DNA of 64,000 nucleotides from a virus (lineage: Duplodnaviria; Caudoviricetes). The translations under genes were made by a program, and so were the position numbers. The notes below the pieces were generated by a model. It did not search any database and was not told where the DNA came from. It saw only the letters and a list, made by a program, of their open reading frames with translations. The stretch covers positions 3,842 to 67,841 of IMG/VR virus record IMGVR_UViG_3300024046_000005, one strand, 5' to 3'. This document shows positions 2,063 to 51,334 of the stretch, one piece after another (within the stretch, counting starts at the first letter, position 1; each line of letters starts with the position of its first letter).

Positions 2063-2763
2063 GCGATGGTTCCGATCGTGTTGCCCCGGGTGCCGCCCAC
2101 CCAGGTGATGAAGGAATCGCCCACGATGGCGCGGCCCGCTGATCGCCCCACAATGCCCGCATTGGCAACGCCAGTGGGATCGTTCGTGGTGCCACTGGCG
2201 CCCGTGGCGCCGTTCTCGCCCCAGGTGCCGCCGTAGCCGCCGGTGCCGCCCTTCGCGGTGTAGGGCGGGAAGCCGCCATCGGTTTGCGTTGTGCCCGCGC
2301 TGCCAGCGGCTCGGGTTTGCGACCCAGCGCTGTCAACACCGTTGCCCGTACCGCCCAAGCCCCCAGTAGCTGTTTTGAAACCGCCGCTGCCGTTGCGCAC
2401 GGTGGCGCTGCCGCCGGTGCCTCCCTGCCCCCCTGGCGCATAGATGTAGCCGAGGTTTTCGACGGTGACCGGCTGCGCGGCGGTCAACGCATCGCCGGAG
2501 GTGCTGCCGGATGCCGCAACGGCACTGACCATGGTGCTGGCGCCGATACGGATTTTCAGGCCGCCGGGAAACGATGCGGCGCCCGCAGTGGGGACGGACA
2601 GCGCGCCGATGGTGGGTGCGGTGATGTTGACGAGCAGCGCACTGATGCCGTTCCAGCCCGCAGCAATCGCCAATGAGCGCAAATTGGGGGCGTAGGCGTG
2701 GCTGGAGAGGGTGAGCACGAATTCCGGCTTTTTAGCCAGCAGGAACAGGACTGCGGGATGCAT
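2059..2763 (-). CDS. Glycine-rich putative receptor-binding adhesin (T-even gp38-like)
   Basis: VTVENLGYIYAPGGQGGTGG and further GGxGG motifs; last gene of the tail module. Confidence 0.55.
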   Translation of the reverse strand: MHPAVLFLLAKKPEFVLTLSSHAYAPNLRSLAIAAGWNGISALLVNITAPTIGALSVPTAGAASFPGGLKIRIGASTMVSAVAASGSTSGDALTAAQPVTVENLGYIYAPGGQGGTGGSATVRNGSGGFKTATGGLGGTGNGVDSAGSQTRAAGSAGTTQTDGGFPPYTAKGGTGGYGGTWGENGATGASGTTNDPTGVANAGIVGRSAGRAIVGDSFITWVGGTRGNTIGTIA

Positions 2764-3722
2764 CAGGACACCCCTCCACCGATCACGCAGTCGCTGGCCG
2801 AGGTGTAGAGCACGACGGCAGTACCGTAGGCCGCGAGCGAGGCGCTGGCCTTGGACGAACCATCGACCAGGCGCATGGTCATGCCCGAGCCAGACGTGAG
2901 GGTGATGGCACTGGCGCTGGTGTTGGTGATGGCGTAGCTCCCGCCCGCCGGGAACACGGATGCGGCGGGCATGGTGAATGCCGCGCTGCGCACGAGGTGC
3001 ATGCCGTTGTCCGCTATGGTGGGCGTGCCGCTGGTGGAGCCTGCGGCCAGCGTGATGGGTTGCCTTTCGTCAAGCGCGGCCTGCTGGGCGGCGGATACCG
3101 GCTTGTCAGCGTCGCTGGTGTTGTCCACGTTACCCAGGCCCACCAGGGCGGGCGATGGCGCGCCGCCGTCTTTGATGACGCCGCCGGTGATGCCGTCGAA
3201 CAGGGCGATATGCCCATCCTGCGCCGAGGGTGGGCCGCTGACGTAAGCGCTGGCGGGCAGGTAAGCGGCCTCCCACGCAGCGCCGCTGTACACGCGCATT
3301 TGATCGGACACGGTGTTGTAGTACAGGGCGCCTGTTTGCAGCGCCCCGCCCTGGTTGTCAGTGGCCGGGTCGCTGGATTTGTCACCGAGGTAGCGCTTGT
3401 CAAAATTCTGGTAGCTGTTGCCGGCGCTGGTGGCGCTGGCATTGGCCTCTGTGGCCTTGCTCGTAGCGATCCCGGCCTGCGTGACGGCCGTATCCTTGGC
3501 TGCCACGGCCACGTCCGCCGCATCGCCGGCCGTTCCAGCGCTTTCGTGGGCAGAGACGGCGTTCGTGTAGGTGGCCGCGATGGCGGCGTTGACCTGCGTG
3601 ACCAACGTGTCCTCGGACTGAAGGCGCGCAAACGCCTTGCTGTCGAATTCCGCCGGAGTGTCGGTCGGTAGCGGCGCGGGCGCCATGGGGTCGATGGTCG
3701 GCGGTGCAATGGGATTGGTCAT
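2763..3722 (-). CDS. Tail fibre/spike-like protein
   Basis: Ala/Thr-rich coiled segment, GALYYNT...MRVY and GLGNVDNTSDADKPVS motifs typical of phage fibres. Confidence 0.65.
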   Translation of the reverse strand: MTNPIAPPTIDPMAPAPLPTDTPAEFDSKAFARLQSEDTLVTQVNAAIAATYTNAVSAHESAGTAGDAADVAVAAKDTAVTQAGIATSKATEANASATSAGNSYQNFDKRYLGDKSSDPATDNQGGALQTGALYYNTVSDQMRVYSGAAWEAAYLPASAYVSGPPSAQDGHIALFDGITGGVIKDGGAPSPALVGLGNVDNTSDADKPVSAAQQAALDERQPITLAAGSTSGTPTIADNGMHLVRSAAFTMPAASVFPAGGSYAITNTSASAITLTSGSGMTMRLVDGSSKASASLAAYGTAVVLYTSASDCVIGGGVS

Positions 3723-4636
3723 GTCAGGCCCTCCAGTTCAAGGTCGCAGTCGGAATAGTCAAAGTAGGAAATCACGATGTCGAAGCTTTTGTAGAAGCCA
3801 TACACCGTGGTCGATTCGTAGCGGGTGGAGCCCATCCACAGGCATGCCCTGGCGCGTACGCTGGAGAGGAAGCGGTGCAGGGAGTCCACCTCGTCAGCGC
3901 CGAGCTGCAGCGTGAAGCTGGCGCGCTTGGCGAAATTGCGCTCGACGACCATCACGTCGCCGAAGTCGTTGCGCTCCTTGCGCGAGTAGTCCTGGATGCC
4001 CAGGCGCGCGCCGTACTTCACGCCCATGGAGAAGCGCCGCGCCTGGCCGAACAGGATCACGCCCACGCCGAGGTCTGCGGTGCCGGTGAAGTCGATGTAC
4101 AGATCCGCCGTGGGGTAGCTGGGCAGGTCGGTCAGGATGGCCTGTGTCGGCGAGCGGCGCTCCCCGAAGTACCAGGCCCACCAGCCCGACTCCAGCGGAT
4201 GGGCGCTCAGGTCGATGGTGCGGTCGTACACGTCCCCGGTGACCGGCGCGACAACCCGCGCACGCATGGCCGTGGCGCCGGAGAGATTGAGCGCGGCCAG
4301 CGCCGTGGCAGCACGGCCCGGGCGCAACTGGTAGCTGATCGCATCCGCCTGCTTGACTTGAGAGCTGACGGACTGGTCGAACGGCTTCCAGCGATTCGTG
4401 GCGCCGACTTCCTGCCAGTTGAGCACGTCCGCGCCGGGCGTGTTGCCGGTGTTGCCGTCCACCAGGCTTTCGTAGACCTTGTGCGCGGACACGACGATGA
4501 CGCGGTCGCCCTGGTCGTACGTGGTGTCGGCATCCCAGGCGTCGTAGTCCGTCTCGGGCACGTTGCAGTCGATCAGCATGGCGTCGGTGAGTGCGACGGG
4601 ATCGACAACGGTGATGGCGTAGGGGCCGGCTGTCAT
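3719..4636 (-). CDS. Minor tail / tail-tip protein
   Basis: Start reassigned to MTAGPYAIT at 4636, overlapping the tape-measure stop; directly follows the tape measure. Confidence 0.65.
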   Translation of the reverse strand: MTAGPYAITVVDPVALTDAMLIDCNVPETDYDAWDADTTYDQGDRVIVVSAHKVYESLVDGNTGNTPGADVLNWQEVGATNRWKPFDQSVSSQVKQADAISYQLRPGRAATALAALNLSGATAMRARVVAPVTGDVYDRTIDLSAHPLESGWWAWYFGERRSPTQAILTDLPSYPTADLYIDFTGTADLGVGVILFGQARRFSMGVKYGARLGIQDYSRKERNDFGDVMVVERNFAKRASFTLQLGADEVDSLHRFLSSVRARACLWMGSTRYESTTVYGFYKSFDIVISYFDYSDCDLELEGLT

Positions 4637-7600
4637 GGCAATGTCTCCTCGCGCGTGGGTGGCAGTCCGTCGCCCTCCCAGCGTTCCAGCAGCTTGGCCA
4701 CGCGCAGGTTCAGTCGCGCGATCTCGCCGGCCTGGGCTTTGTTGTCGTCGCGCAGGGCGCGCAGCTCGGCCACCACGCTGGGGTCGCTGCTGACGACGAT
4801 GGGCGTGGCCCCAATGGCCTGCACCGCAGGCAGCGCGACGGAGATGGAGGACGGTGCGGCGCGTGGCACCGACTTGCCATTGGCGTAGGCGTTGGCGTAG
4901 GCCGCGGTGTCCTGCAGGCTCTGCGCCACGCTGGCGCGCAGGGATTGCAGTTCGTACAGGCTGGCGGCGTTGTTCGCGGCCACGGCCAGCAGCGAATCGC
5001 TGACGCTGGCCAGGCGGCCGGCGGCGTCCTGGTCGCCGGCCCGCGCCATGGCGGTGTCGATCGTGAATTGCGCCTGCCACCAGTCCATACCATGGCCGGC
5101 ATCTTGTGCAATCTCGCCCCGGATCAGCTTGACCTGGTCGAGCAGGCTGGTCGTGATGTCGGCCCAGGCTTCCTTGATGCGCTCGGCGGCTTCGGCCGCT
5201 TCGCGGGCGCTGTTGCTGACGGCGCTGTTGTAGTTGCCGATCGATGTGGCGGCGCGCATCGTCGGGATCTGGATCGATCCGATGGCGTTGCTGATCTCGC
5301 TCAGCAGCCCGGAGCTTTGCAGTTCTTGCATGACCTGCGCGGCCACGCTGACCATTTGCTTGGCTTGCTCCACCACAAGGCCGATGGATGCGGCGCTGAC
5401 GGCTGCGGTCGCGTTGGCGCCGGTCATGGCGGCGGTCACGACAGGGGTGACGATGCCTTGCACCAGGATGTTGCTGATCTGCTGTGCGAATCCGCCGGCG
5501 ATGGCGTTGTAGATGCCATCCTGCACGCTTGCAGCCATGGCGGCGCCGACACTGCCGCCGCTGAAAGTGCCCAGCATGGCGCTGGAGATGGTGCTGGCCA
5601 GGCCGCTGGCGGTTTGCCCCAGGGCCGGCAGAGCGGCCACGGTGGCGTCCACGCTGGTGGTCACGGCGGCAAATGCGGAGTTCAGCTCCAGCAGCGCGGC
5701 GGCGGTTTCTTCGGCCGTCTTGCCGGTGTCCTTGAGGACGATGCTGGTAGTGCCTTCGTCCTGCGCGCTGGCGGCCGCAGCCATGGCCGCCTCGACGGCA
5801 GAGCGGTACTGCGTGCGCGCGCCCATGGAGTCCAGGTCGATATTGACGCCCAGGTCGGAGAGCTGCTTATTGACAGCAGCGCGCGCTGTGGTCAGGCGTT
5901 CGCTCTCGGAATAGAAGTTCTGGTAGTACGAGGACGTGACGGCGTTGAAGTTGTCCAGCCCACCGAGCAGATCGGCAAACCGGTTGGCCGCGTCCGCCCC
6001 AGCCAGGGAGGCGTCGTACAGCGTGAAGCCCAGTGTCTCGAATACGCTGTTGACGTTGGTGATATGGGTCGCCAGCCGGGTCAGCGTGTCGATCGCTTGC
6101 TCGCCGTCGCGCGCGAATTCACTTGCAACGTAATGCGTGCCGGTAATGACTTCTTCGTATTCGCTGTAGATGCCGGGGATGTCGAGGTCGCCGTCGATCG
6201 GGCCGCGATCTTGCCGGGTGCGGCGCACGGTCTCGGTCGTGGTTTCCCAGCGGCCTATGACTTGTTCCGCCAAGGTGTTGTTGGCCGTGGCCAGGGCTTC
6301 GGCGATCTTGGCGGCGGCTTCTTCGGCGGTCAGGCCTTGGGTGTCCACCCCAACCCCGGCGTTCAGGTCGGGGTGTACTTCATCGGTGCCGAACGCCATC
6401 GTGAAGTCGCGCACCTTGTCGCTGCCCAGGCCCAGCGCATCGGCCATGTTGCCCACGTTGTCGCGCAGCTTGTCGTAGGCGGCCTGGATGTCGTCGCTTT
6501 GCTTCTTGGCTGCTGCGAGCATCGGGTCGTAGAGTGCGCGGCGAGCGTTCAGCGTCTCCTGAGTCTCGTAGGCCTCGCGCGATGCGCCTTGGCCCGAGGC
6601 GCGCAGGTCTTCAAGGCGCCGCTCCAGGTCGGCGATGCGCTTGCCTTCGTCTTCGATGCGGAAGTCAGGGCCGGAAAACAGCGTGCCGCCGTCGCGGACG
6701 ACGGTGTACGGTGTCAGGTCGCCATCGCCAAGGGTGCCGCGCAGGCCGCCGCCTACGGTGCGTTTGCTCCTGAATGCACCCAGGGCATTGAGCACCACGG
6801 CAGCGATGGCGGCGTAGGCGCCTGCGGCGTAGCTTGCACCTGCGCCCGCCCCACCCGCGCCGGCGCTGCCAGCCCCCGCTGCCGTGCCGTACGCCCCGTT
6901 GGTCGCCAGCAGGCCATCAATGCCGGTCGCAGTGGTGTTGGCGTACAGCGAACCCGCCATGTTCGCCGTGCTCATCGAGCCGCCCATCCACCCGCCAATT
7001 GCGCCCAGATTCCCGCCGGTAGCCGTGAGCGCGTTGTATGCGCTGTAAGCATTGCTGGCCATACCCAGCGTGCCCATTACTCCATTGCCACCGCCCTGCG
7101 CATTCCCACCAATAAACCCCTGCACCACGCCATTGACAACACCAGACACCGGCGCCATCACAGCGCTGATGATGGGCCGCAGCACCATCGTCTTGAACAT
7201 GTTCTGCACGGCGTCGCGCAGGTTCTCGGCAAAGCCCTTGCCGTCTTCGAAGCCACGCATCAGGGCGTCGGTCAGGCTCTGATTGATCTGGTCGGCGGTC
7301 TTTTGCCATTCGGTCAGCGTCTCGCGTGCAATGGCCGTTTCGGTCTTGACGCGAGCCTTTTGGCGGGCCTTGGCGCGCAGTTCTTCCCTTTTGCGCTCGT
7401 TTTCTTCTGCTGTGCCGTCGAACGTCTGCTTGTCGATCTCGCGCAGCTCCTTCGCCAGCTCCAGTTCGATCTCACGGGCAGCGATGATCTTGCGGCGCTC
7501 CAACTCGGTTTGTCCGATCAGGGACAGTTCTTCCAGCGTGACAACCTGCTGCTCACTCGCCACGGCCAGCGCCTCGTCCATCGAGCGGGCTACCTTGGTG

Positions 7601-27901: not shown

Positions 27902-28213
27902 TTAAATCTTCTTCCCACCAGCAGCAACCAATTTCGGCGGCGCGGCGGTCGCAAACCGTCCGGCAACGCGCTTCGCAGCTTCGTTGCTCTGCTCTTTCTT
28001 GCCTACCTCGCCCTTCTTGGCATGGATGTAGGGCATTAACGCCTTGGCAGCATCAACCCTCAGCTTCGCGTCCGTTCCGCTGTCGTTCATCACCGCCCGA
28101 AGAAACTTCTCCGGGTCGTCATATATCGCCGACAACTGCAGAATCGTCGGCTCTTTCGGCTTGCGGCCAGCCCCGGGACGGGCTCCACCGCTCTGCCCTT
28201 TTACTCCGGCCAT
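27902..28213 (-). CDS. terS: Terminase small subunit
   Basis: GGARPGAGRKPK...PEKFLRAVMND...RVDAAKALMPYIH; directly upstream of terL. Confidence 0.85.
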   Translation of the reverse strand: MAGVKGQSGGARPGAGRKPKEPTILQLSAIYDDPEKFLRAVMNDSGTDAKLRVDAAKALMPYIHAKKGEVGKKEQSNEAAKRVAGRFATAAPPKLVAAGGKKI

Positions 28214-29349: not shown

Positions 29350-29742
29350 ATGAAAATCGAAGTCAAGGATGGGAAAGTCGCGCTGCAAATCAACGGCGAG
29401 TTCAACTCAGAGGAACTCCGTCAGCTTCTTCATCAAATTGGCGATGCCCGATCCACGATTGCTGATGACCCGCAAACTCTTGCTGCTGGCAACGTTGAGG
29501 TGAAGGCCGTGGCGTTTCCACCCTATTGGACGGAGCACAGCGAGAACACCAAGAACCAAACGCTGTTTGCGTTCAGGCACCCTGCCTTTGGTTGGCTCGG
29601 CTTTCTCTTGTCTCCCGTAGAGGTTGCTCGATTGATCGGCTACTTCGGCAACCAGTTGGTGCGCGGGGCCACCATTGCAGAGGCTGGGGCAGCCACCGAT
29701 GTGCAGCCGGATCAGATCAGAGGCGGCGGCTTGCTGCACTGA
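29350..29742 (+). CDS. Hypothetical moron protein (opposite strand)
   Basis: RBS GGAGG, start MKIEVKDG, 130 aa. Confidence 0.65.
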   Translation: MKIEVKDGKVALQINGEFNSEELRQLLHQIGDARSTIADDPQTLAAGNVEVKAVAFPPYWTEHSENTKNQTLFAFRHPAFGWLGFLLSPVEVARLIGYFGNQLVRGATIAEAGAATDVQPDQIRGGGLLH

Positions 29743-29870: not shown

Positions 29871-30004
29871 CAAAAATTTTGGGCGAGTTCTGCCGTCGCT
29901 AATCTACCCCATGACTGTTAAACCGGCCTGGTGACCAGCGCTGGGGGCGTTCGGCAGAGATTCGCGGGCGACAGCCTTAGCAGGCTGTGCATTCGACGAG
30001 TGCA

Positions 30005-30032
30005 ATTGTATCTCGACCGCCACAAAACGCAA
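30005..30032 (-). promoter_or_regulatory. Putative late promoter (pR'-like)
   Basis: TTGCGT-N16-TACAAT on the minus strand, ~135 bp upstream of a terminator and the late genes. Confidence 0.55.
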
Positions 30033-30076
30033 TAATAGGTGTTTCTACCTATGAAAAGAACTTGCCGAGGAGTCAC

Positions 30077-30613
30077 ATGATGCAAGTTTCTGAATTCGCC
30101 CTCTCAACCCCTGAGCACGGAGTGCTGAGCCGTGAGTCGTCCCGCGCAGCCGCCGAAACAGCGGCTGCGCGGTACACACCGCCGCTGCAGGGCTACACCA
30201 TCACCGAGGAGCTGCGCCCCGCCGCTGCGCGCGGCTTGTGCGTGGCCGTCGGCGGCCTGCACCGCACTTGGGAGCTCGTAGCTTGCGACGCAGACCCTGC
30301 ATGCGGCCTCTACCCCGTCACCGAGCGCGCAGCTTTAGCCTTGGGCATCGGTGGGCATGTCGGTATCTTGCGCGCCCCCGGAATCGTGACGCTCAAAAGC
30401 GAGCTGCAGGATCAGCCCGAGATCGAGGAGCAGGCCACAATCAACACAACGCACAACCAGCCATGGAGCGCTGGCCGGCTTGCCGCCCGCGCTGTCGCGG
30501 CTGCAGCCCTAGGGGTGAGCGAAGCCCCGGCATGGGAGTCGCAAGAGTACGGCCCCGCCCTGCGGCGACTGCTATACGAGCGCTATGAGCGCCGCGCATA
30601 CACAGCATATTGA
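30077..30613 (+). CDS. Hypothetical protein; candidate anti-defence gene (aca2-like operon)
   Basis: RBS GAGGAG; 178 aa; two genes upstream of the aca2-like gene. Confidence 0.65.
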   Translation: MMQVSEFALSTPEHGVLSRESSRAAAETAAARYTPPLQGYTITEELRPAAARGLCVAVGGLHRTWELVACDADPACGLYPVTERAALALGIGGHVGILRAPGIVTLKSELQDQPEIEEQATINTTHNQPWSAGRLAARAVAAAALGVSEAPAWESQEYGPALRRLLYERYERRAYTAY

Positions 30614-30644
30614 GCGATTCACGGACTGGATGGAGGCGCAACAA

Positions 30645-30959
30645 ATGCAGCAGATCGCCCACATCACTATCCCGGACGGATTGACCTTTGCCGACCTACG
30701 CCTGGCCCGCGATCCCGCGACCGGCGATGTGTCATTTGACACGACTATCGTTGAGCGCATTGAGCAAGCAAGCGGCCTGCCCAAGGGCTTTTTCATGAGC
30801 CAGCCCGAGGATGCGCTGGCCGCCGTCGTCACCGAGTGGTACGTGCACCACCTGGCTGCGGGCGGCGAGCGCGATCCCGTCGCCGATGACCTGATCGCCG
30901 AGGTGCGCGCTGAGGACGCGGCAGGCCAGCACCATAGCCACAAGCCGGGGCGAGCATGA
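30645..30959 (+). CDS. Small acidic protein; candidate anti-CRISPR
   Basis: RBS GGAGG; 104 aa with 17 D/E vs 8 K/R; stop overlaps the aca2-like ATG. Confidence 0.65.
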   Translation: MQQIAHITIPDGLTFADLRLARDPATGDVSFDTTIVERIEQASGLPKGFFMSQPEDALAAVVTEWYVHHLAAGGERDPVADDLIAEVRAEDAAGQHHSHKPGRA

Positions 30960-31426
30960 CCCCCGCCGAACTCAAAACCATCCGGGAGGCTGTCGGCCTT
31001 TCGGTGCCTGACCTCGCCGCGCTGGCTGGCGTCCAAGAGCGCACCGTGCGATATTGGGAGAGCGGGCGCACCGCCGTGCCCGACGATGTGCAGGCGCTGG
31101 TGCTGCGCCTTGACGATCTGCTGGCGCAGCAGGCACAGCACGCCGTGGCCGTGGTGCGCGAGCAGGCCCAGGCCATGGGCAGCATGCCCGAGTCCATCAC
31201 GCTTCTTCGCTACCGGGAGACAGATGATCTATGGCACTACCGTCCAGACTTCCGCCCGCTTCCCGTCACAACACACGCAGCCCTGCTGGCTCGATGCCGC
31301 GCAGCGCTGGCTGATCTGCATGTGCAGACCCGCATCGTGTACATGGAGCCGCAGCAGTATCAGCAGTGGCTAGCAGGGCGGGCCGACAGCGAGGCCATGC
31401 GCGCTGCGTGGGCGGCAGAGCAGTAG
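30956..31426 (+). CDS. aca2: Aca2/YdiL-like (DUF1870) HTH repressor
   Basis: MTPAELKTIREAVGLS...YWESGRTAVPDDV...LLRYRETDDL matches the remembered Aca2 pattern MTNKELQAIR...YWESGRSAVPDDV. Confidence 0.75.
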   Translation: MTPAELKTIREAVGLSVPDLAALAGVQERTVRYWESGRTAVPDDVQALVLRLDDLLAQQAQHAVAVVREQAQAMGSMPESITLLRYRETDDLWHYRPDFRPLPVTTHAALLARCRAALADLHVQTRIVYMEPQQYQQWLAGRADSEAMRAAWAAEQ

Positions 31427-31456
31427 CCAGGCGTACAGCCACAAGCCGGGCCGCGC

Positions 31457-32170
31457 ATGACGCCTACATCCACGGCCCACGGCGACAACGTGCCTTGGGC
31501 CGGCAATCCAGGCCGCCCGGTGCCGCACTGCTGGCTGAATCCCGACCCGCAGTCCGACGAATACCGCGATGCCGTGGCCGCGTGCTACTGGGCGCCCGGC
31601 AACCATCCGCGCAGCAAGACCGCCGTAAAGGCCTGGTACCGGCGCAACGGCGGCGCCGGCCTGGCCCTGGGCGCCGCAGTGGCCGGCGCTGGCGCCTGGT
31701 GGGTACAAGGCCAGCGCTACGGGCTGCAGGTCGAGCAGCTCAAGCACCAGCACACCAGCGCCGAGCTGGCCGGCGCGCGCAAGGCCGCGCGCGACATGGC
31801 GCAATTCCAGAAAGGACTGACCGATGCATTCCACAACTTCCAGGCCACCAGCCAGCGAAACGCCGCTGCGCAGCAAAACCTTGACCGCAGCCTGCGCGAC
31901 CTGCGCGGCACTACTGCAAGCCTGCGCGGCGACTTCGCAGCCCTGCCCGAGCGCATCGCCGGCGCTGCCCAGCCCGCCCTCGCTCAGTACGCCAGCACCT
32001 GCACAGCCGTACTCGCAGAGCTGGCGGATCGAGGTACAAGACTGGCAGAACGCGGTGCAGCAATCGCGCACGCGGCTGATGGCCACGCCGCTGACGCCGC
32101 GCTGATGCGCGACGCCTGGCCGCGCGCGGCGGCTACGCCCGAGGATGGGGCGCTGTCGCGCATTGATTAG
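31457..32170 (+). CDS. Chimeric ORF: fragment of a 1316-2062 homolog fused to an Rz-like inner-membrane spanin
   Basis: First ~70 aa match 1316-2062; then TM LALGAAVAGAGAWWV, coiled coil, and C-terminal ADGHAADAALMRDAWP. Confidence 0.7.
   Translation: MTPTSTAHGDNVPWAGNPGRPVPHCWLNPDPQSDEYRDAVAACYWAPGNHPRSKTAVKAWYRRNGGAGLALGAAVAGAGAWWVQGQRYGLQVEQLKHQHTSAELAGARKAARDMAQFQKGLTDAFHNFQATSQRNAAAQQNLDRSLRDLRGTTASLRGDFAALPERIAGAAQPALAQYASTCTAVLAELADRGTRLAERGAAIAHAADGHAADAALMRDAWPRAAATPEDGALSRID
31472..31666 (+). repeat. 195-bp inverted repeat, copy 2 (partner 1637-1831)
   Basis: 183/195 identical; 8 synonymous and 2 conservative codon changes. Confidence 0.9.
31824..32105 (+). CDS. Rz1-like outer-membrane spanin embedded in Rz (+1 frame)
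   Basis: Lipobox LQA-C, then Pro-rich linker PCPSASPALPSPPSLSTPAP; fully nested in the Rz-like ORF; start uncertain. Confidence 0.72.
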   Translation: MHSTTSRPPASETPLRSKTLTAACATCAALLQACAATSQPCPSASPALPSPPSLSTPAPAQPYSQSWRIEVQDWQNAVQQSRTRLMATPLTPR

Positions 32171-32190
32171 GGTTTGTCCTGATAAATTAC

Positions 32191-32220
32191 TTGCCAAAAT
32201 ACACGCAATGCGTATATAAT
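32191..32220 (+). promoter_or_regulatory. Strong sigma70 promoter with palindromic operator
   Basis: TTGCCA-N18-TATAAT; operator ATACACGC-AAT-GCGTATAT at 32199-32217. Confidence 0.78.
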
Positions 32221-32285
32221 CAATGCCATGGTGATCGAGATTGATCGCCACCGGCGCCTCCCGGAATGAGGGGTAGGAGAGAAAA

Positions 32286-32474
32286 ATGTACGCAGTCACC
32301 AACGCATTCGAAATCCGCGAATCCCTCAAGGCCATGGGCGCCAAGTGGGACGGCCAGCGCAAGGCCTGGATCATCACCCAAGCCATGCTCGACAAGTGCA
32401 TGGCTCGCACTCAAGCCTATGGGATGGCATGGTGCAAGGGCTGCTGGGCCAAGGCTCAAGTGGAGGCGATCTGA
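32286..32474 (+). CDS. 62-aa hypothetical; candidate anti-defence protein
   Basis: RBS AGGAG; first gene after the strong promoter. Confidence 0.7.
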   Translation: MYAVTNAFEIRESLKAMGAKWDGQRKAWIITQAMLDKCMARTQAYGMAWCKGCWAKAQVEAI

Positions 32475-32647
32475 TGACCATCGCCCAAATCCGCGCCGCC
32501 TTGATCGTCAAATTCGGCGCCCGCATGTACCGCATCACGCGCGACGGGGAAATCCACGTCCATGGCGTGATGCCAAACACCCAAATAGTCGGCTGGTATC
32601 TGTATGGGTACGTTGGCGACGCAGAAACAGAGGCTCGCCTGCAATGA
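32474..32647 (+). CDS. 57-aa hypothetical; candidate anti-defence protein
   Basis: TGATG coupling; MTIAQIRAALIVKFGARMYRITRDGEIHVHG. Confidence 0.65.
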   Translation: MTIAQIRAALIVKFGARMYRITRDGEIHVHGVMPNTQIVGWYLYGYVGDAETEARLQ

Positions 32648-32868
32648 CCAACCGCGCCCGACTCACGGTCACGCTCGGCGGACCCTGGCGCCTCTACCAG
32701 CACCAGCCGCCACCCGGATGGCAGATGCTGGGCACCGTGCAGCTCGGCATGGAGATAGGCGCGCTGGGCCGCTCGCCTGTTGGCGTGCTTGCAATGCTCA
32801 ACGCGGGCGCGGTGCGCTCGCTCGATCAGCGCAAGGCACGCGCGGCGCTGGAGGCTGCGGCGTCATGA
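32644..32868 (+). CDS. 74-aa hypothetical; candidate anti-defence protein
   Basis: ATGA coupling at both ends; MTNRARLTVTLGGPWRLYQH. Confidence 0.65.
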   Translation: MTNRARLTVTLGGPWRLYQHQPPPGWQMLGTVQLGMEIGALGRSPVGVLAMLNAGAVRSLDQRKARAALEAAAS

Positions 32869-33047
32869 CAAGCCCCACCCCCGATGCTATCCGCGCCGCC
32901 CGCGCCGCTACCGGCCTGACGCAAACCCAGGCGGCCGCGCTGATCTACTGCACCCTGCGCGGCTGGCAGGACTGGGAAGCTGGCAAGCGGGCCATGCACC
33001 CGGCTTTTTTTGAGCTTTTTTTGCTCAAGACGCAAAAAAGTGCTTGA
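32865..33047 (+). CDS. 60-aa XRE HTH, Aca-like operon repressor
   Basis: PDAIRAARAATGLTQTQAAALIYCTLRGWQDWEAGKRAMHPAFFELF; last gene of a small-gene operon. Confidence 0.8.
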   Translation: MTSPTPDAIRAARAATGLTQTQAAALIYCTLRGWQDWEAGKRAMHPAFFELFLLKTQKSA

Positions 33048-33072
33048 CGAATGCACGCGATGCGTGCATAAT
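33044..33072 (+). promoter_or_regulatory. Strong sigma70 promoter with palindromic operator
   Basis: TTGACG-N17-CATAAT; operator ATGCACGC-GAT-GCGTGCAT at 33051-33069. Confidence 0.8.
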
Positions 33073-33138
33073 ACAGTCATGGGTTCAGGAAAGAACCCAC
33101 CGCCCCGGCGGCTTCCGGGTCTCAAGCCGGAGAACATC

Positions 33139-33324
33139 ATGTCCACCACCTACCGCGCCGCATACTGGGTCGCTGCTGATTGCTCGGGCGACGTGCGCCT
33201 GACCACCGAAGACCAAGCCCATCTGTCTGACGCTGAGCTGATGGCTGCCGCCTTGGCGGAAGCCAAAGCCAACGGCCTGGAAATCGGCGACGGCGAAGTG
33301 CTCATCGGCGACTACACAGAATGA
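33139..33324 (+). CDS. 61-aa strongly acidic protein; candidate anti-CRISPR
   Basis: RBS GGAG; 12 D/E vs 3 K/R; first gene after the operator-controlled promoter. Confidence 0.7.
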   Translation: MSTTYRAAYWVAADCSGDVRLTTEDQAHLSDAELMAAALAEAKANGLEIGDGEVLIGDYTE

Positions 33325-33590
33325 CCTTTCGCGTCTACCTGCGCTCACCCGATCAGCGGGTGAGTGACAAAACCACCACGGGCAGCCCCGATGCCGCCCG
33401 CGCGGCCTTTGCCGACCTGGTGGCCCGCGTTGACCTGGACGGGCAGCGCCTGCTGGCCGTGCTCAACGCCGATGGCCGGCCCATCGCGCACCACGATTTC
33501 AGCAAGCCGGCGCCGCCCGCGCCTGGCAGCGACCCCGCACACTGGTGGCGTGGCCGTATCCAGGCCATAGACCTGGACCGCGCCGGCTGA
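33321..33590 (+). CDS. 89-aa hypothetical protein
   Basis: ATGA coupling with the upstream gene. Confidence 0.65.
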   Translation: MTFRVYLRSPDQRVSDKTTTGSPDAARAAFADLVARVDLDGQRLLAVLNADGRPIAHHDFSKPAPPAPGSDPAHWWRGRIQAIDLDRAG

Positions 33591-33591
33591 C

Positions 33592-34515
33592 ATGGCCCGC
33601 CCATCGCGCTTTGACCCAGCGCACGATCAACTGATCGGTACCGACAGCGACCAGGCCATTGCCGACCGCCTGGGCGTCACGCGCAGCACTGTCGCCGCGC
33701 GCCGGGTGCAGCTCGGCGTTGCCGCTGCGCGCGCACGCCGAATCTGGACGTCACAAGAGGACGCGCTGCTCGGGCGCGACACCGATGCCAGCATCGCGCA
33801 CAAATTGGGCCGATCCCACGCATCCGTCACACAGCGGCGCATCGCGCTGGGCGTGCCGCCAGTCTCTCTTGAGCAGCGTCGTGCATTGCGCATGCGCACA
33901 CGCGCCGACGTGCTGGCCTACCTTGCCGGCGACATCATCACCTGCCTGATCTGTGGCAGGCCGTGCAAATCCGTGGGGCACCACGTGCGCCAGGCCCACG
34001 GCATCAGTGCACGTGAATACAAGCAGCAATTCGGCCTGCCGCTGTCGCGCGGCATCGAGGCCGAGTCAGTGCGCCAGGCGCGCTCTGATGCCATGCGCGC
34101 CACCCGTGCCGCCGGCCGAATGCCGCAGACACCGCCGCCAGTGGACGCGCAGCGCCGCGGAAAATCACCGTACAAAATGGCGCGCGTCACCGCTGCAGAT
34201 GTGGGCCGGGTCATGCATCGTCTGCAGGCCGGCGAAACGCTGACCGAAGCGTGCGCTTATCCAGGCATGCCTAGCTGGTCTGCCGTGCACAGCGCCTTGC
34301 ATGCCGACGAGGGTCTACAAGCGAGATTTGATGCGCTCGTAGAGAGCCTGCCATTTGCGCAGCAGGCCCGCATGAAGAAGCTTGGCGCACGCTTTGCTGC
34401 TGCCTGCGATGCTCTCTCCGATCTGACGTGCAAGGCAGCAGCGCAGCAGCTCGGTGTGAGCGATGATGTCGTCAGGCGGCACAGGGTGCGGGAAAAGAGC
34501 CTGGATGGCGCATAA
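33592..34515 (+). CDS. Multi-HTH protein with a Ros/MucR-like zinc finger
   Basis: Two ~40-aa HTH repeats (IADRLGVTRSTVAARRVQLGV / IAHKLGRSHASVTQRRIALGV); ITCLICGRPCKSVGHHVRQAHGISAREYKQQFGLP; C-terminal HTH. Confidence 0.7.
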   Translation: MARPSRFDPAHDQLIGTDSDQAIADRLGVTRSTVAARRVQLGVAAARARRIWTSQEDALLGRDTDASIAHKLGRSHASVTQRRIALGVPPVSLEQRRALRMRTRADVLAYLAGDIITCLICGRPCKSVGHHVRQAHGISAREYKQQFGLPLSRGIEAESVRQARSDAMRATRAAGRMPQTPPPVDAQRRGKSPYKMARVTAADVGRVMHRLQAGETLTEACAYPGMPSWSAVHSALHADEGLQARFDALVESLPFAQQARMKKLGARFAAACDALSDLTCKAAAQQLGVSDDVVRRHRVREKSLDGA

Positions 34516-34701
34516 CTGCTGATTGGCCACAAACCACCCCTGTAGTGGGAACACCCAGGCGCTAAACAGGGGGTGTAGCGGCATCGCGCCAGAACTGCAA
34601 ACATAGGGAGTCGTGGGATTTTTTGGGAAACCAAATACCCCCTGTGGCGGCATCGCACCGGATCTCCAAGCCACCCCTGTGAGGGAATCTAGCGCGATGT
34701 T

Positions 34702-35259
34702 TCAGCGCCCAGAAATATCCCGCAAACTGCGATGCATCTGGCCTCGCGCGCGCTGCAGGCAATCATCGAGGTAGTTCGCCGCCCGCTTCCCGATTTCTCT
34801 CTGCGGCACTCGTGCCTCGCCCGATCCGCCGCACCGGCTGCATTGCTTGGCCGACAGCCGCGCAGTTCCTGGAACCACGTCAAATTTTCGGCCTTCGCAT
34901 TTTGCGCAAACGCGATGCAGCCACCATGCGATGATGGTCAGCGCTGCTTCCGTCGGGTGTTCGTGCCCCCACTCGTGCAGCTTGATCGCGAGCTGCGCCT
35001 TGACGCTGGGAAGTGTCTTGAGTTGACCCATGAGCAGGATGGCATCGGTGGCAGACATCCCCTGTATCCGCATGGGCCTGCCGTATTCGCTGGCGAGGCG
35101 AAGCAGAGCACTACCCAAGCGCGCGGGCGACCATGCAGCGGCGGTGCACACGTCCACGTCGGACACTGGCGCATGGTCGCGTGTATCCATGCGCAGATTG
35201 TCGGACAAGATTGCAGTCGTATAGCGTTCGTCGGTGCGGATGGGGTTGTCTTGGATCAT
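34702..35259 (-). CDS. Q-like late antiterminator
   Basis: Last gene of the PR operon after ninG; CAKCEG...CSRCGGSG zinc motif. Confidence 0.65.
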   Translation of the reverse strand: MIQDNPIRTDERYTTAILSDNLRMDTRDHAPVSDVDVCTAAAWSPARLGSALLRLASEYGRPMRIQGMSATDAILLMGQLKTLPSVKAQLAIKLHEWGHEHPTEAALTIIAWWLHRVCAKCEGRKFDVVPGTARLSAKQCSRCGGSGEARVPQREIGKRAANYLDDCLQRARGQMHRSLRDISGR

Positions 35260-44450: not shown

Positions 44451-45161
44451 ATGTCGCTATCCGACCGGCTGCACCTTGTTTTTGAAAAAAACCCCAAGCT
44501 CACCCAGGCAGGGCTGGCGCGTGCGTGCGACATATCCCGTGCGTCCGTGAACGCTTGGGTCAGAGGCCCCACGGAAAGCATCGACGGCAAGTACCTCACT
44601 ACTGCGGCCGCATACCTCGGAGTGACACCGCACTGGCTTTCTACTGGGCGCGGCGACATGGTTGCTGCTTCCACCACCTCCAACGTCATCGCCCTGCACC
44701 CAGACGACAACTTGCCGGATAACATGGTGCAGATTCCCGAGTACCGCGTGAAATTCAGCGGCGGCAATGGCACCGTGGCCATGACCTACGAGTTGGCCGA
44801 AGAAGTAGAGCCAGCCACCTACCGCCTATCGTGGATGCAGCGCATGCGCCTGAACCCGGAGAAACTCAAGCGCTTCAAGGTCAAGGGCGACAGCATGGAG
44901 CCCCTGCTGTACAGCGGCGACTCCGTGCTGGTGAACCTAGCAGAAAACGACATCAAAGAAATATTGGACGGCAAGGTGTACGCCATCCGCTACGGCAACG
45001 AGCTACGGGTCAAACGCCTGTACCGACGCCTCGATGGCGGCCTGACCCTGCGCAGCTACAACCCCGAGCACAAAGACGAAGACCTGACACCCGATCTGGT
45101 GGCCCAGCACATCACCGTGATTGGCCGTGTCAGGGACAAAAGCGGTGCGGGCGGGCTGTAG
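44451..45161 (+). CDS. cI: CI repressor (HTH plus S24 peptidase)
   Basis: TQAGLARACDISRASVNAW; VKGDSMEP...VKRL. Confidence 0.93.
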   Translation: MSLSDRLHLVFEKNPKLTQAGLARACDISRASVNAWVRGPTESIDGKYLTTAAAYLGVTPHWLSTGRGDMVAASTTSNVIALHPDDNLPDNMVQIPEYRVKFSGGNGTVAMTYELAEEVEPATYRLSWMQRMRLNPEKLKRFKVKGDSMEPLLYSGDSVLVNLAENDIKEILDGKVYAIRYGNELRVKRLYRRLDGGLTLRSYNPEHKDEDLTPDLVAQHITVIGRVRDKSGAGGL

Positions 45162-48471: not shown

Positions 48472-49062
48472 GTGCACATCACCATCAACCACCCAACCTT
48501 CAATTTCGGCCTCGCGCCCAGCGCCATGGATCGCGCGTTCTTCGCTGCGCTAATGCCCACTACTGACAACGATCCCGACACCCCTGCCCCTGCGCCCGCC
48601 CAGGCCATTGCAGGCCGCCCGCAGATCGGCGAATACTGGCCCGGCCAGGGCGGCATCTACGCAGGCGATTTTCGCGCTGGCGATGGTTCTATCTACGGTC
48701 TGATCGTCGCCCAGGATCAGGACATTGGCACAGCCGCCTGGGGGTCGAACGGCGAGCTCGACCTGAGCAACTGGGATGGCCTGACTAACACCAAGGCACT
48801 GCTAGACAACTGCCCCGCCGCCAAGCTGGCCTCCGGCTACACCCGCGACGATCACAGCGACTTCTACCTGCCCGCGCGCCGCGAGCTGCTGCTAGGCGCG
48901 GCCAATCTGCACGACACCTTCGGCACCGAGAGCTGGTACTGGACCAGCACGCCCCGTGCCGAGCACTACGCCTGGGCGGTCGATTTCGAGACCGGGAACA
49001 CGCCCAGCTTCACCCGGTACAACGAGTTCCGGGTCCGCCCCTTCCGCAGATTCATCTATTAA
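48472..49062 (+). CDS. DGR target protein 1 (DUF1566/C-type-lectin-like C-terminus)
   Basis: RBS GGAG plus GTG; IGEYWPGQGGIYAG, YLPARRELL, WYWTST; ends with VR1. Confidence 0.88.
   Translation: MHITINHPTFNFGLAPSAMDRAFFAALMPTTDNDPDTPAPAPAQAIAGRPQIGEYWPGQGGIYAGDFRAGDGSIYGLIVAQDQDIGTAAWGSNGELDLSNWDGLTNTKALLDNCPAAKLASGYTRDDHSDFYLPARRELLLGAANLHDTFGTESWYWTSTPRAEHYAWAVDFETGNTPSFTRYNEFRVRPFRRFIY
48970..49048 (+). repeat. DGR variable repeat VR1
   Basis: 69/79 identical to TR; all 10 mismatches at TR adenines. Confidence 0.97.
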
Positions 49063-49101
49063 GCCCTTCGCCCCTTTCTTCCCCCCACAGCAGGAACATC
49101 T

Positions 49102-49512
49102 ATGACCACCGAAACCCAAGCGACCATCCCCGCTATCAACCAGCCGTGGCCCGAGCAGGGCGGCATCTACATCGGCTCGCGCCTCATCAACGGCGTCGTG
49201 CATCACGTCGTCATCGCTGACGGCGGCACAGCGCACGACCTTGAAGACCAGGCGGCCAAGGACGCCCAGGGCGTGCAGTTCGGAGAAATCAACGGGCATA
49301 GCGACTGGCATGCCGGCGACCAGGAAGACGTGATGCTGGCCTACATCAACGCCCGGGAGCACTTCGAGCCCACCTACTACTGGAGCCGCAGCGAGCACCA
49401 CGGCTGGCCCTGGGCGGTCGATTTCGAGTACGGAGACACGACCACCTTCTACCGGCACGACGAGTTCCGGGTCCGCCCCTTCCGCAGTTTTCCCGATTCA
49501 TCCATTCAGTAA
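49102..49512 (+). CDS. DGR target protein 2 (paralog of target 1)
   Basis: INQPWPEQGGIYIG, YYWSRSE; ends with VR2. Confidence 0.88.
   Translation: MTTETQATIPAINQPWPEQGGIYIGSRLINGVVHHVVIADGGTAHDLEDQAAKDAQGVQFGEINGHSDWHAGDQEDVMLAYINAREHFEPTYYWSRSEHHGWPWAVDFEYGDTTTFYRHDEFRVRPFRSFPDSSIQ
49408..49486 (+). repeat. DGR variable repeat VR2
   Basis: 69/79 identical to TR; all 10 mismatches at TR adenines. Confidence 0.97.
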
Positions 49513-49515
49513 TTC

Positions 49516-49530
49516 GCGGGCGTAGCCCGC
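49516..49530 (+). promoter_or_regulatory. DNA hairpin downstream of VR2 (DGR target-recognition element)
   Basis: GCGGGC-GTA-GCCCGC, 30 nt after VR2. Confidence 0.7.
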
Positions 49531-49536
49531 CACGGC

Positions 49537-49998
49537 ATGGCACTCCACACTGATACCGAGATCTACCGGGCCACCTACGACTTGACCAAGATGGTCACAG
49601 CCTACGTGGCCAACATGGAGAGGAACTACAGGGCGGACTTCGGCGCCGAGTTGCGCAGGCGGTGCATGACGCTGGTCATGCGCACCTACGAAGCCAACAC
49701 CTCCGACGACAAGCCGCCCATCCTGCGGCGGATGCGCCAGGAGGTGGAGGCGGTCAACCTGTCGCTGCGCCTTGCCAAAGACCTCAAGCAGATCTCGCCC
49801 AAGCAGTACGGCAACGCCATCGCCCTCACCGCGAGCATAGCCAAACAGGCCACAGGGTGGCAGAGGCATTCGGAGAGTGCGCTTGTCGCCGAGTCGTCAC
49901 GGCGGCCCGGCCAATGCGCCATGGAATCTGGTCGAGCCGCTGGAGCACAACCCCACCGACAGGCGCAGCAGGGATATCAGCGGCAGCAGCCGGAGTGA
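49537..49998 (+). CDS. avd: DGR accessory variability determinant (four-helix bundle)
   Basis: IYRATYDL...LRLAKDLKQISPKQY...SIAKQATGW; between the targets and TR/RT. Confidence 0.88.
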   Translation: MALHTDTEIYRATYDLTKMVTAYVANMERNYRADFGAELRRRCMTLVMRTYEANTSDDKPPILRRMRQEVEAVNLSLRLAKDLKQISPKQYGNAIALTASIAKQATGWQRHSESALVAESSRRPGQCAMESGRAAGAQPHRQAQQGYQRQQPE

Positions 49999-50054
49999 TC
50001 CCGCGCAGTCCGCCCGCTGAGCCATTCGGCGGGCCGACGTGATGAGTTCGACAG

Positions 50055-50133
50055 ACCTGGGCGGTCGATTTCGAGAACGGAAACACGAACAACAACAACC
50101 GGAACAACGAGTTCCGGGTCCGCCCCTTCCGCA
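50055..50133 (+). repeat. DGR template repeat TR
   Basis: 79 bp, 23 adenines including 8 AAC codons; lies between avd and RT; preceded by hairpin 50012-50034. Confidence 0.97.
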
Positions 50134-50152
50134 TATTCCACCGAGAGCTTCT

Positions 50153-51334
50153 ATGGATTCTGGCTACTCAATCGGGAAGCTGGTACAGGCCTACGAGGAC
50201 TGCAAACGGCACAAGCGGACCACCGCGAGCGCCCTGCACTTCGAGCAGCGCCTGGAGCACAACCTGATGGAGCTGCACGAGCGCCTGCTGGACGGCAGCT
50301 ACCGCCCTGGGCGCTCCATCTGCTTCGCGATCAGCCGCCCACGGCCGCGCGAAGTGTGGGCCGCGAGCTTCCCAGACCGGATCGTGCATCACCTAGTCTA
50401 CAACCAGATCGCCGACCGATTCCAGCGGCGGTTCATCGCGGACTCGTGCGCCTGCATCCCCGGACGCGGCACGCTGTACGCTGTAAAGCGTCTCGAAAGC
50501 AAAGTGCGCAGTCAGACGCAGAACTGGAGCCGCCAAGGCTTCTACCTGAAATGCGATTTGGCCAATTTTTTCGTCAGCATCGACAAGCGCAAGCTGTGGC
50601 CGCTGCTGGTCGATCAGATCCATGAGCGCTGGTGGCGCGGCCTCACCAAGACCGTGCTGTTCCACGATCCGCGCGAGGACTTCGAGTTGCGCGGCAGTCC
50701 GGAGACGCTGGCCGCCGTGCCCGCACACAAGCGCCTGATGAATGCCGACCGCTACCACGGGCTGGCAATCGGCAACCTGCCGTCGCAGTTCTGTGCCAAC
50801 GTGCTCTTGAACGAGCTGGATCAGCACGTCAAGCACCGCATCCGCGCCCGGCACTACACGCGCTACGTAGACGACATGGTGCTGCTGCACGAATCGCCCG
50901 ACTGGCTCAACGCCGCGCTGGCCGACATCAACGCCTTCTTGCCAGGGTTGGGCCTCGCGCTCAACCCTCGCAAGACCGTGCTGCAGCCCATCGACAGGGG
51001 CATCGACTACGTGGGCCAGGTCATCCTGCCCTGGCGGCGCGCCACCCGCCGCCGCACGCTGCGCCAGGCCTTGGAGCGGCTGGGAGACATGCCCGACGAG
51101 GACGTGTACGCCAGCGGCAATAGCTACCTTGGCCTTGTACGCCAGGCCAGCCACAGCCACCACGAGCAATCCCTGATCTGCCGCGCCCTGCTCAAACGCG
51201 GGCACGCAGTCGATGGGCTGCACTTCAACAAAGCATTCCGCCGACGATCCGTAGGCAGTGATGCAGCAACGACAAGCCCGCCCCCAGCGGGCTTTTTTAC
51301 GCCCAGGAGCCAACGATGCACACAGACCTCGTAG
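50153..51334 (+). CDS. DGR reverse transcriptase
   Basis: RPREVWAASFPDRIVHH, LKCDLANFFVSID, GLAIGNLPSQFCAN, YTRYVDDMV, IDYVG; start MDSGYS after TR. Confidence 0.95.
   Translation: MDSGYSIGKLVQAYEDCKRHKRTTASALHFEQRLEHNLMELHERLLDGSYRPGRSICFAISRPRPREVWAASFPDRIVHHLVYNQIADRFQRRFIADSCACIPGRGTLYAVKRLESKVRSQTQNWSRQGFYLKCDLANFFVSIDKRKLWPLLVDQIHERWWRGLTKTVLFHDPREDFELRGSPETLAAVPAHKRLMNADRYHGLAIGNLPSQFCANVLLNELDQHVKHRIRARHYTRYVDDMVLLHESPDWLNAALADINAFLPGLGLALNPRKTVLQPIDRGIDYVGQVILPWRRATRRRTLRQALERLGDMPDEDVYASGNSYLGLVRQASHSHHEQSLICRALLKRGHAVDGLHFNKAFRRRSVGSDAATTSPPPAGFFTPRSQRCTQTS

Follow-up and report, generated by a model that had tools for sequence, protein, structure and literature searches.

What does a prophage keep in a 4.6-kb island of genes that runs against its neighbors, between the end of the early operon and the late genes? 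The island lies in a 64,000-nt stretch of viral DNA (the window; bases 3842–67841 of the 67.8-kb IMG/VR virus record IMGVR_UViG_3300024046_000005). A preliminary description had read positions 30035–34700 as three stacked plus-strand operons of the kind in which anti-CRISPR (acr) genes are followed by the gene of an anti-CRISPR-associated (aca) repressor. This architecture is borne out by the searches reported here, in which two of the regulators gave Aca-family matches and a homolog of one of them was found adjoining an Acr-family gene. In our view the island is probably an accessory region of mosaic build in a lambdoid Comamonadaceae prophage, composed of self-repressed cargo operons of the acr-aca type, some of whose products are most likely inhibitors of defense.

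All of the plus-strand open reading frames (ORFs) named in that description are present at the same positions in the ORF list, each with the coding pattern of GC content at the three codon positions (GC1/GC2/GC3) and with conserved homologs elsewhere, and adjoining genes overlap by 1–4 nt, as expected of operons. The second and third units comprise the following features (HTH, helix-turn-helix; TerS, small terminase).

32191–32220, plus strand: promoter P2 (TTGCCA-18-TATAAT, 11/12), upstream of unit 2.
32199–32217, plus strand: palindrome TAcACGCAaTGCGTaTA in the P2 spacer, the predicted Aca10 operator.
32226–32285, plus strand: unit 2 leader (RNAfold −12.2 kcal/mol, z −2.7).
32286–32474, plus strand: p62 (62 aa), cargo; DUF5710 (PF18974) is matched below threshold, at 23.3 bits (cut-off 26.5).
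32474–32647, plus strand: p57 (57 aa), cargo, with an 86% homolog in locus L020.
32644–32868, plus strand: p74 (74 aa), basic conserved cargo (isoelectric point, pI, 11.6).
32865–33047, plus strand: Aca10-family HTH repressor (60 aa; 7XI5, HTH_31), last gene of unit 2.
33044–33072, plus strand: promoter P3 (TTGACG-17-CATAAT, 10/12), its −35 overlapping the aca10 stop codon.
33051–33069, plus strand: palindrome ATGCACGCgatGCGTGCAT in the P3 spacer.
33078–33138, plus strand: unit 3 leader (−10.4 kcal/mol, z −2.3; stem GGGUUC/GAACCC).
33139–33324, plus strand: p61 (61 aa), highly acidic first gene of unit 3 (pI 4.07; 12 D/E against 3 K/R).
33321–33590, plus strand: p89 (89 aa), partner of p61, with a 60% homolog directly behind a p61 homolog in L146.
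33592–34515, plus strand: MucR307 (307 aa), in which a Ros/MucR zinc finger stands between two HTH repeats at the N-terminus and a TerS-like HTH at the C-terminus.

The regulator at the end of unit 2 belongs to the Aca10 family. Using phmmer, residues 3–58 of the 60-aa HTH protein aligned with residues 5–60 of PDB entry 7XI5 (E 1.1e-18, ∼60% identity over 56 residues), and HTH_31 was matched at 28.4 bits (cut-off 27). 7XI5 is the P. citronellolis Aca10, the repressor of acrIC7-acrIC6-aca10, which binds a 19–21-bp palindrome overlapping its promoter and for which R44 is critical for binding (PMC9410881). This DNA-binding arginine is kept in the window homolog, where R42 aligns with R44 of 7XI5. 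Aca10 was defined beside acrIC6 and acrIC7 (PMC7913775) and has also been linked with AcrIF17 (PMC9410906). The window protein also matched the NCBIfam model for VC1465/XafT, Xer recombination activation factors, below threshold (39.9 bits; cut-off 70).

P2 and P3 were the sole two sites returned by a sigma-70-like scan of 9 kb and stand exactly upstream of units 2 and 3, where the preliminary description had put promoters. Since two sites equal the shuffle mean (2.0), their number is not itself significant, and the weight rests on their positions and on the operator that they have in common. The palindrome ACGCNATGCGT has two matches in the 64 kb, one in each promoter spacer, compared with 0.33 expected, and two or more occurred in 2 of 100 shuffles. 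When IMG/VR was scanned for the operator together with its −10 motif, ACGCRATGCGTNNATAAT, 116 contig stretches matched, most of them by chance in AT-rich contigs. Fourteen of the 116 carry an Aca10 homolog (41–86% identity; 15 operator-aca10 pairs), which is always downstream of the operator on the same strand, at a distance of 236–2648 bp. Hardly any two of these contigs have the same genes between operator and aca10; many of those genes are small and acidic. Because the same operator and −10 motif precede co-oriented Aca10 homologs in these 14 other contigs, unit 2 is, by homology and comparison, an aca10 operon: a strong sigma-70 promoter whose spacer holds the 17–19-bp palindrome, a structured leader, the p62-p57-p74 cargo, and aca10 last.

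A direct link to a known anti-CRISPR family comes from locus L050, in which a homolog 60% identical to the window Aca10 immediately follows a gene of the AcrIC5 family (37.6 bits on PF22147, whose cut-off is 27; PDB 7yhr, E 1.4e-6) in a unit with the same operator. This locus supplies the guilt by association for which the preliminary description had called. The AcrIC5 domain itself (PF22147, PDB 7YHR) is not in the window and ties the regulator family to anti-CRISPR function by association only. Compared with the P. citronellolis acrIC7-acrIC6-aca10 operon (7XI5; PMC7913775, PMC9410881), unit 2 has the same kind of terminal regulator, a 60–65-aa HTH_31 repressor ∼60% identical and with the R44 counterpart kept, the same placement of a 17–21-bp palindrome within a strong promoter, and the same order of small cargo first and aca last. 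It differs in operator sequence and spacing (ACGC-N3-GCGT in the window, ACGC-N7-GCGT in P. citronellolis), in cargo unrelated to acrIC6 and acrIC7, in its host, a betaproteobacterium of the Comamonadaceae, and in the duplication of the operator on a neighboring aca-less operon.

The cargo of unit 2 recurs as a block. In L020, p62-p57-p74 homologs (85% identity for p62) and one extra gene are followed by aca10, and a second operator-cargo-aca10 unit comes next; both units come immediately after holin, endolysin and Rz/Rz1 and run in the same direction as the late genes. For p74, 7 related IMG/VR loci (53–84% identity) were found in different phage types, often before DNA-binding, HTH-like proteins. 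Of the three proteins, p62 had no PDB match, p57 had no Pfam match and a single PDB row with one weak stretch (CalC, 1zxf, E 0.051), and p74 had no Pfam match and a single weak PDB row (Sec61 beta, 2wwb, E 0.45). An Aca10-like ORF also occurs, unannotated, in a cultured phage: in Ralstonia phage Raharianne (MT740745.1, 7071–7226; L231, 2501–2656), a protein with 61.5% identity is encoded at the end of a three-gene mini-operon on the opposite strand.

Unit 3 has the same operator and leader type as unit 2, yet it lacks an aca10 of its own. The preliminary description had taken the MucR-type protein as its Aca, and this assignment has to be given up: the operator of the unit is of the Aca10 type, and in L227 a related promoter (ACGC-N5-GCGT) and a near-identical leader precede homologs of p61 (42%), MucR (45%) and Aca10 (65%), in that order. 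In L146 the p61-p89 pair follows a P3-type leader, but with a different operator and a different HTH protein. Among the 12 homologs of p61 (56–74% identity), four different DNA-binding partners were seen (L145, L146, L142, L227), and in L145, as in the window, a p61 unit on the opposite strand separates terminase from replication genes. The same cargo under different regulators, and one Aca governing a neighboring aca-less operon, have both been described for acr loci (PMC9410906; PMC13551039). Given the Aca10 operator in P3, the arrangements in L227 and L146 and this published control of aca-less neighbors, MucR307 is better read as cargo or as a co-regulator, and unit 3 is most likely an aca-less satellite, with the Aca10 of unit 2 repressing it in trans.

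MucR307 matches ROS_MUCR over residues 104–170 (E 1.4e-12, 48.2 bits against a cut-off of 25.4) and also HTH_23. It gave 3606 library matches, and its C-terminal part is 43–46% identical to MucR proteins of 217–226 aa; a pattern scan of IMG/VR gave no relative. Like other Ros/MucR regulators it contains the PF05443 domain; unlike them it carries the N-terminal HTH repeats and the TerS-like C-terminal HTH as fused parts, is encoded by a phage whose host is a betaproteobacterium, and lies inside an operon predicted to be under Aca10 control. Of its companions, p61 gave no PDB lead and only unnamed clusters below 0.85 in the ESM Atlas, and p89, for which a partial match exists in L019, had no PDB match below E 1 (three rows, E 1.1–2.0).

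The two leaders provide further evidence of a common frame. Taken from ∼6 nt past the −10, both begin with a hairpin at nt 3–5 and have a second hairpin before the Shine–Dalgarno (SD) sequence. Eleven units were folded (the 2 of the window and 9 related ones, full-length), and all have a 5′-proximal hairpin at a like position (z −0.15 to −3.7). The stems vary in sequence (GGUGAUCG/UGAUCGCC, GGGUUC/GAACCC, GGACAGC/GUUGUCC and others), and the second half of the unit 3 leader is near-identical in L146, L120, L016, L010 and L012. Since the MAFFT alignment of the leaders was not structure-aware, conservation was judged by hairpin position, with no covariation statistic. An RNA motif directly after the transcription start site has been predicted for aca10 operons, although binding of RNA by Aca10 was not detected (PMC13551039); the window leaders correspond to this predicted motif. 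The same study reports Aca control of neighboring aca-less operons and describes 5′ untranslated region RNA motifs for Aca1, Aca2 and Aca14, with predictions for Aca10 and Aca12. The window resembles these systems in having one Aca gene with two operator-bearing promoters in tandem, a hairpin just past the predicted start site, and a conserved distance from leader to start codon; it differs in that stems of the window type vary widely while the operator is fixed. Aca10, its operator logic, the predicted leader RNA motif and multi-operon control are already published.

The first unit is less clearly defined. Its features are as follows.

29350–29742, plus strand: 130-aa ORF to the left of the island, membership uncertain (GC1/GC2/GC3 0.64/0.42/0.65; SD-like GGAGG before the ATG at 29350).
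29988–30004, no strand assigned: 17-bp inverted repeat TGCATTCGaCGAgTGCA; weak promoter-like hexamers in divergent orientation lie next to it.
30077–30613, plus strand: p178 (178 aa), first gene of unit 1 (13 homologs, 44–79% identity).
30585–30959 (124 aa) or 30645–30959 (104 aa), plus strand: p124, acidic (pI 4.9), a short form of a widespread family.
30956–31426, plus strand: Aca2/DUF4447-family HTH protein (156 aa; PF08965 28.5 bits against a cut-off of 23.8, residues 1–90).

The 130-aa ORF, which the preliminary description had passed over together with a 237-aa ORF at 31457–32170, gave no family match in profile-library searches. The 156-aa regulator, presumed to be the autorepressor of unit 1, had been called Aca2-like, and its score above the Pfam Aca2_YdiL threshold bears this out in part. 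HTH_31 was also matched, and DUF4447 (PF14590) fell just short, at 25.7 bits against a cut-off of 27.2. Alignment to the PDB Aca2 entries 8w35 and 7vjo covers only residues 1–55 or 1–72 (E 7e-7 to 4e-6), and that to SO3848/DUF4447 (2ox6) covers residues 4–156 (E 1.2e-5). Compared with acrIF8-aca2 of Pectobacterium phage ZF40 (Aca2, PDB 7B5J/7VJO), the unit 1 regulator passes Aca2_YdiL, aligns to the Aca2 HTH over residues 1–55 and is encoded last, as regulator, in an operon of small genes, and a 52% relative (L008) has ZF40-like IR1/IR2 inverted repeats. At full length, however, it is closer to DUF4447/SO3848 than to Aca2, the window has neither the IR1/IR2 pair nor a consensus promoter, and a lysis-gene fragment follows the regulator. 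Hence the rule that each unit ends in a DNA-binding protein also needs qualification: the HTH genes are there, but in unit 1 the 237-aa ORF comes after.

The repeat TGCATTCGaCGAgTGCA is unique in the window at 0 mismatches (0.26 sites expected at up to 3 mismatches) and may possibly be an operator of unit 1, of a leftward promoter, or of both. As a canonical Aca2 site it was rejected, since its half-sites are 1 bp apart, compared with 6 bp and 9 bp in ZF40. In L008 (5105–5155), the 52%-identical relative of the Aca2-like protein has a ZF40-type IR1, GTTCGCAAGTGCGAAC, in the promoter spacer; its IR2, ATTCGCGATTGGCGCGAAT, begins right after the CATGG of the leader, within a frame of −10, acagtCATGG and hairpin that is common to Aca10-type units. 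At 71% identity, the nearest relative of the Aca2-like gene occurs twice in the IMG/VR contig L002, at 3564–4031 and 6769–7236, 3.2 kb apart, and the same contig has a p74 homolog at 1284–1532. Beside 8 related IMG/VR loci of the 156-aa protein, no recognized Acr was found by ORF inspection and by tblastn with the island proteins only.

For p178, no Pfam or PDB match was obtained, and its AlphaFold2 model was poor (pLDDT 55). The p124 family has more than 200 homologs at 62–78% identity; its long forms begin HLRIPxxxKxxW...LTDWI, which we read by eye, without a family search, as ribbon-helix-helix (RHH), and this region is lost in the window p124. A 133-aa protein from a Logan contig (P0132) joins the first ∼75 residues typical of the p178 family to a p61-like domain and so links the cargo of units 1 and 3.

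From characterized Aca systems, the course of expression can be proposed. Upon entry of the phage, the promoters would be unrepressed and would give a burst of cargo expression; Aca10 would then build up, occlude RNA polymerase and close both P2 and P3, leaving a low maintenance level of cargo expression in the lysogen. Unit 1 is read as a third such cassette, whose control region differs from theirs and is poorly defined; between it and unit 2 stands a displaced Rz/Rz1 fragment, left behind by recombination with a related phage. At least some of the cargo, above all the acidic p61 with p89, would most likely inhibit a host defense, be it CRISPR-Cas or another system. We rank p61 as the best anti-defense candidate, and place p61 with p89 first, p62, p57 and p74 next, and p178 and p124 last.

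Several observations weigh against this interpretation. As the preliminary description had already found, no known Acr can be recognized: p178, p124, p62, p57, p74, p61 and p89 match no known Acr or anti-defense family in Pfam, PHROGs, NCBIfam or PDB sequence searches. The p124 model (pLDDT 70) had no Foldseek match in the PDB (no E below 0.9), and the best score in a VIA wide search, Z 2.8, is noise. p74, the DUF5710-like p62 and MucR307 resemble DNA-binding or regulatory proteins rather than inhibitors. Moreover, the Aca10-type frame in L100 drives a set of genes around a MoxR-type AAA ATPase that is not Acr-like and is much larger than typical Acrs. The tested site of the P. citronellolis Aca10 (IR2, ATACGCTCATTGAGCGTAT) has ACGC-N7-GCGT instead of the N3 spacing of the window, and we infer binding and repression at the window operator from co-occurrence only. 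Upstream of p178 there is no consensus promoter and no Aca2 IR1/IR2, only TGCATTCGaCGAgTGCA, and the p178-p124 module stands elsewhere co-oriented just upstream of the small terminase gene (L012, L013, L014, L016). The count of up to seven inhibitors given in the preliminary description was too high, as p124 is a truncated member of a putative RHH-domain family, p74 is basic and the 237-aa gene is lysis-related.

These points would be accommodated if the units were self-repressed accessory cassettes (moron or regulatory) without an anti-defense role, in which DNA-binding cargo reprograms transcription, for instance in lysogenic conversion or counter-silencing, and the Aca-type repressors limit toxicity. 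p74 is basic, is 53–84% identical across phage types and usually precedes HTH-like proteins; MucR307 combines several DNA-binding domains and has relatives in the thousands; the long p124 forms have an RHH domain as read by eye, unchecked in Pfam; and the failure of any cargo protein to match a known Acr, like the MoxR-like ATPase set of L100, would be explained. We nevertheless regard this alternative as unlikely, because in L050 an AcrIC5-family gene stands within this very frame of regulator and operator, the genes beside which Aca10 was defined are acrIC6 and acrIC7 (PMC7913775), and cargo turnover within a fixed frame, with small acidic first genes (p61 and several others), is typical of anti-defense loci. 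The L100 unit (573–3069; IMG/VR 3300044994_000219) consists of an Aca10 operator and leader, the MoxR-type AAA ATPase, a 482-aa acidic protein, a double zinc-ribbon protein and then aca10.

For unit 1, the position of its relatives raises another possibility, namely that it is a module conserved among late or packaging genes, a terminase or late-transcription regulator or accessory, that was inverted here by recombination. Consistent with this, in L012, L013, L014 and L016 the module immediately precedes the small terminase gene on the same strand (in L016 the order is [88 aa]-p178-p124-HTH70-TerS), the p124 family, with its >200 members, is unusually well conserved, and most of them have the RHH domain (seen by eye, likewise unchecked in Pfam). 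In L010, on the other hand, the module is at a prophage end beside host genes, far from any terminase gene. The genes flanking p124 also change between phages, with a variable, often acidic gene before it and a variable small DNA-binding gene after it, and the module has the operator-promoter-leader frame of Aca10-type units (the same promoter and leader frame in L010, L012 and L016). In the window, unit 1 points away from the late genes, and the p178 N-terminus occurs fused to a p61-like domain. A packaging role is therefore improbable, and we retain unit 1 as a cargo cassette. That the units are toxin-antitoxin-like modules, with HigA2- or MqsA-like HTH proteins neutralizing small upstream toxins, fits the resemblance of Aca10 to HigA2 antitoxins (PMC9410906; weak PDB and NCBIfam matches here) and the HigBA order of cargo first and HTH last, but is very hard to maintain given that no toxin family was found in any cargo protein (Pfam, PHROGs, PADLOC, NCBIfam), that the units hold two to three unrelated cargo genes which are wholly swapped between phages while the HTH gene stays constant, and that one cargo is of the AcrIC5 family. 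Nor is the island itself a defense system, since in PADLOC no defense family rose above noise, the sole signal being an HTH-level one from the Aca2-like protein; in NCBIfam the island proteins had nothing beyond HTH matches under the threshold.

The island is not continuous: between units 1 and 2 it is broken by a displaced piece of Rz/Rz1 and by scars of recombination.

31426–31464, plus strand: second p124-family 3′-end remnant, a cassette-exchange scar (QAYSHKPGRA-stop, then ATGAC; translated by eye).
31457–32170, plus strand: 237-aa chimeric ORF (phrog_5777, E 1.6e-11).
31824–32105, plus strand: nested proline-rich Rz1-like o-spanin frame, lipobox uncertain, with an equivalent nested frame in L020.

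The remnant is a direct repeat of 30925–30963 (39 nt, 79%, spacing 501). Residues 2–70 of the chimeric ORF copy residues 74–140 of a late 248-aa gene (1316–2062, minus strand), with which it forms an inverted repeat of 195 nt (94%; BLASTP 88% over 76 aa). The rest of the ORF, with transmembrane and coiled-coil segments, is an Rz-like i-spanin, 73% identical to the Rz region behind the endolysin in L020. Because the phage's own Rz/Rz1 pair lies beyond its endolysin, the Rz-like gene in the island is a second, displaced copy. That own pair is situated to the left of the window (L015, 2975–3544, minus strand), as a 189-aa protein with a nested 80-aa lipoprotein, and is followed by host genes. The possibility that the chimera is an assembly artifact was rejected, as a contig from an independent sample (X5, 31195–31847) bridges the junction. 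In an ant-metagenome sample (X4), contigs stop at 31123 and resume at 31472, and a variant without 31124–31471, the segment of the Aca2-like gene, may circulate. On account of the copied p124 3′ end and the chimeric Rz/Rz1 ORF, the island looks like a hot spot built of pieces whose place elsewhere is either after the lysis genes or ahead of TerS.

The record is a prophage, with host genes at its left end. One of them encodes a cysteine synthase 85–86% identical to its counterparts in Hydrogenophaga, Giesbergeria and Comamonas, which places the host in the Comamonadaceae. The genome layout is lambdoid, and the features that frame the island are listed below.

34516–34701, no strand assigned: convergent intergenic gap (186 bp) between MucR307 and the Q-like gene, holding two 27-nt direct repeats.
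34702–35259, minus strand: Q-like zinc-finger protein, right boundary of the island (phrog_127, E 6.6e-5 over 29 residues only).
44451–45161, plus strand: cI-like S24 repressor, in keeping with the lambdoid layout.

A minus-strand early operon encodes DnaB, NinB, NinG, a phrog_4405 protein and the weakly Q-like protein, after which comes the plus-strand island; beyond it are minus-strand late genes for an 80-aa ORF, HNH, the small terminase (27902–28213), structural proteins and a GH108 endolysin (376–1002). The assignment of 34702–35259 to Q is weak: its position after NinB, NinG and phrog_4405 fits the end of the nin region, but the phrog_127 match is short, and no Pfam Q family was matched. 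The late promoter pR′ that had been proposed at 30005–30032 (minus strand, TTGCGT-16-TACAAT) is a weak candidate: its −35 agrees in only 3/6 positions, and it failed the promoter scan. The 27-nt repeats (34574–34600 and 34643–34669; 81% alike, 69 bp apart), just downstream of the Q-like gene, may be late-promoter or Q-loading elements, in which case late transcription would cross the island antisense.

Two more speculative readings can be put forward, both doubtful. In one, the MucR/Ros-HTH fusion and the acidic p61, found together in two unrelated phages, would form an Aca10-timed counter-defense effector that acts on DNA, for example by silencing or un-silencing host defense loci, and not on a defense protein. 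In the other, if the late promoter lies among the repeats just downstream of the Q-like gene, Q-modified late transcription would have to pass antisense along the entire 4.6-kb island. If true, such antisense transcription would be a built-in timer that closes the anti-defense genes late in infection.

We know of no characterized Acrs in the Comamonadaceae, and the island yields ranked candidate anti-defense genes for phages of this host group. As ACGCRATGCGTNNATAAT retrieved 14 further contigs with a downstream Aca10 homolog, most of them with different cargo, the motif is a cheap guilt-by-association probe for new inhibitors. The island also illustrates how such regions are built: the promoter-operator-leader frame and the terminal regulator are kept, and cargo, even regulators, are swapped at short conserved joints such as the repeated 3′ end of p124 and the displaced piece of Rz.

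A blastn search of the island against 50,697 GenBank phages gave no match, and Rfam and tRNA scans of 27–36.5 kb gave none either. The stretch is present in a metatranscriptome run (X3) as even-depth contigs over the whole 10 kb, which may reflect DNA carry-over and says nothing either way on transcription. The phage is present in several ant-metagenome runs from 2018. Far from the island, a 99-nt repeat occurs in three copies, at 48971, 49409 and 50056 (window 48971–50154), with many differences at sites where the third copy has A; this pattern is that of a diversity-generating retroelement, with a template and two variable repeats.

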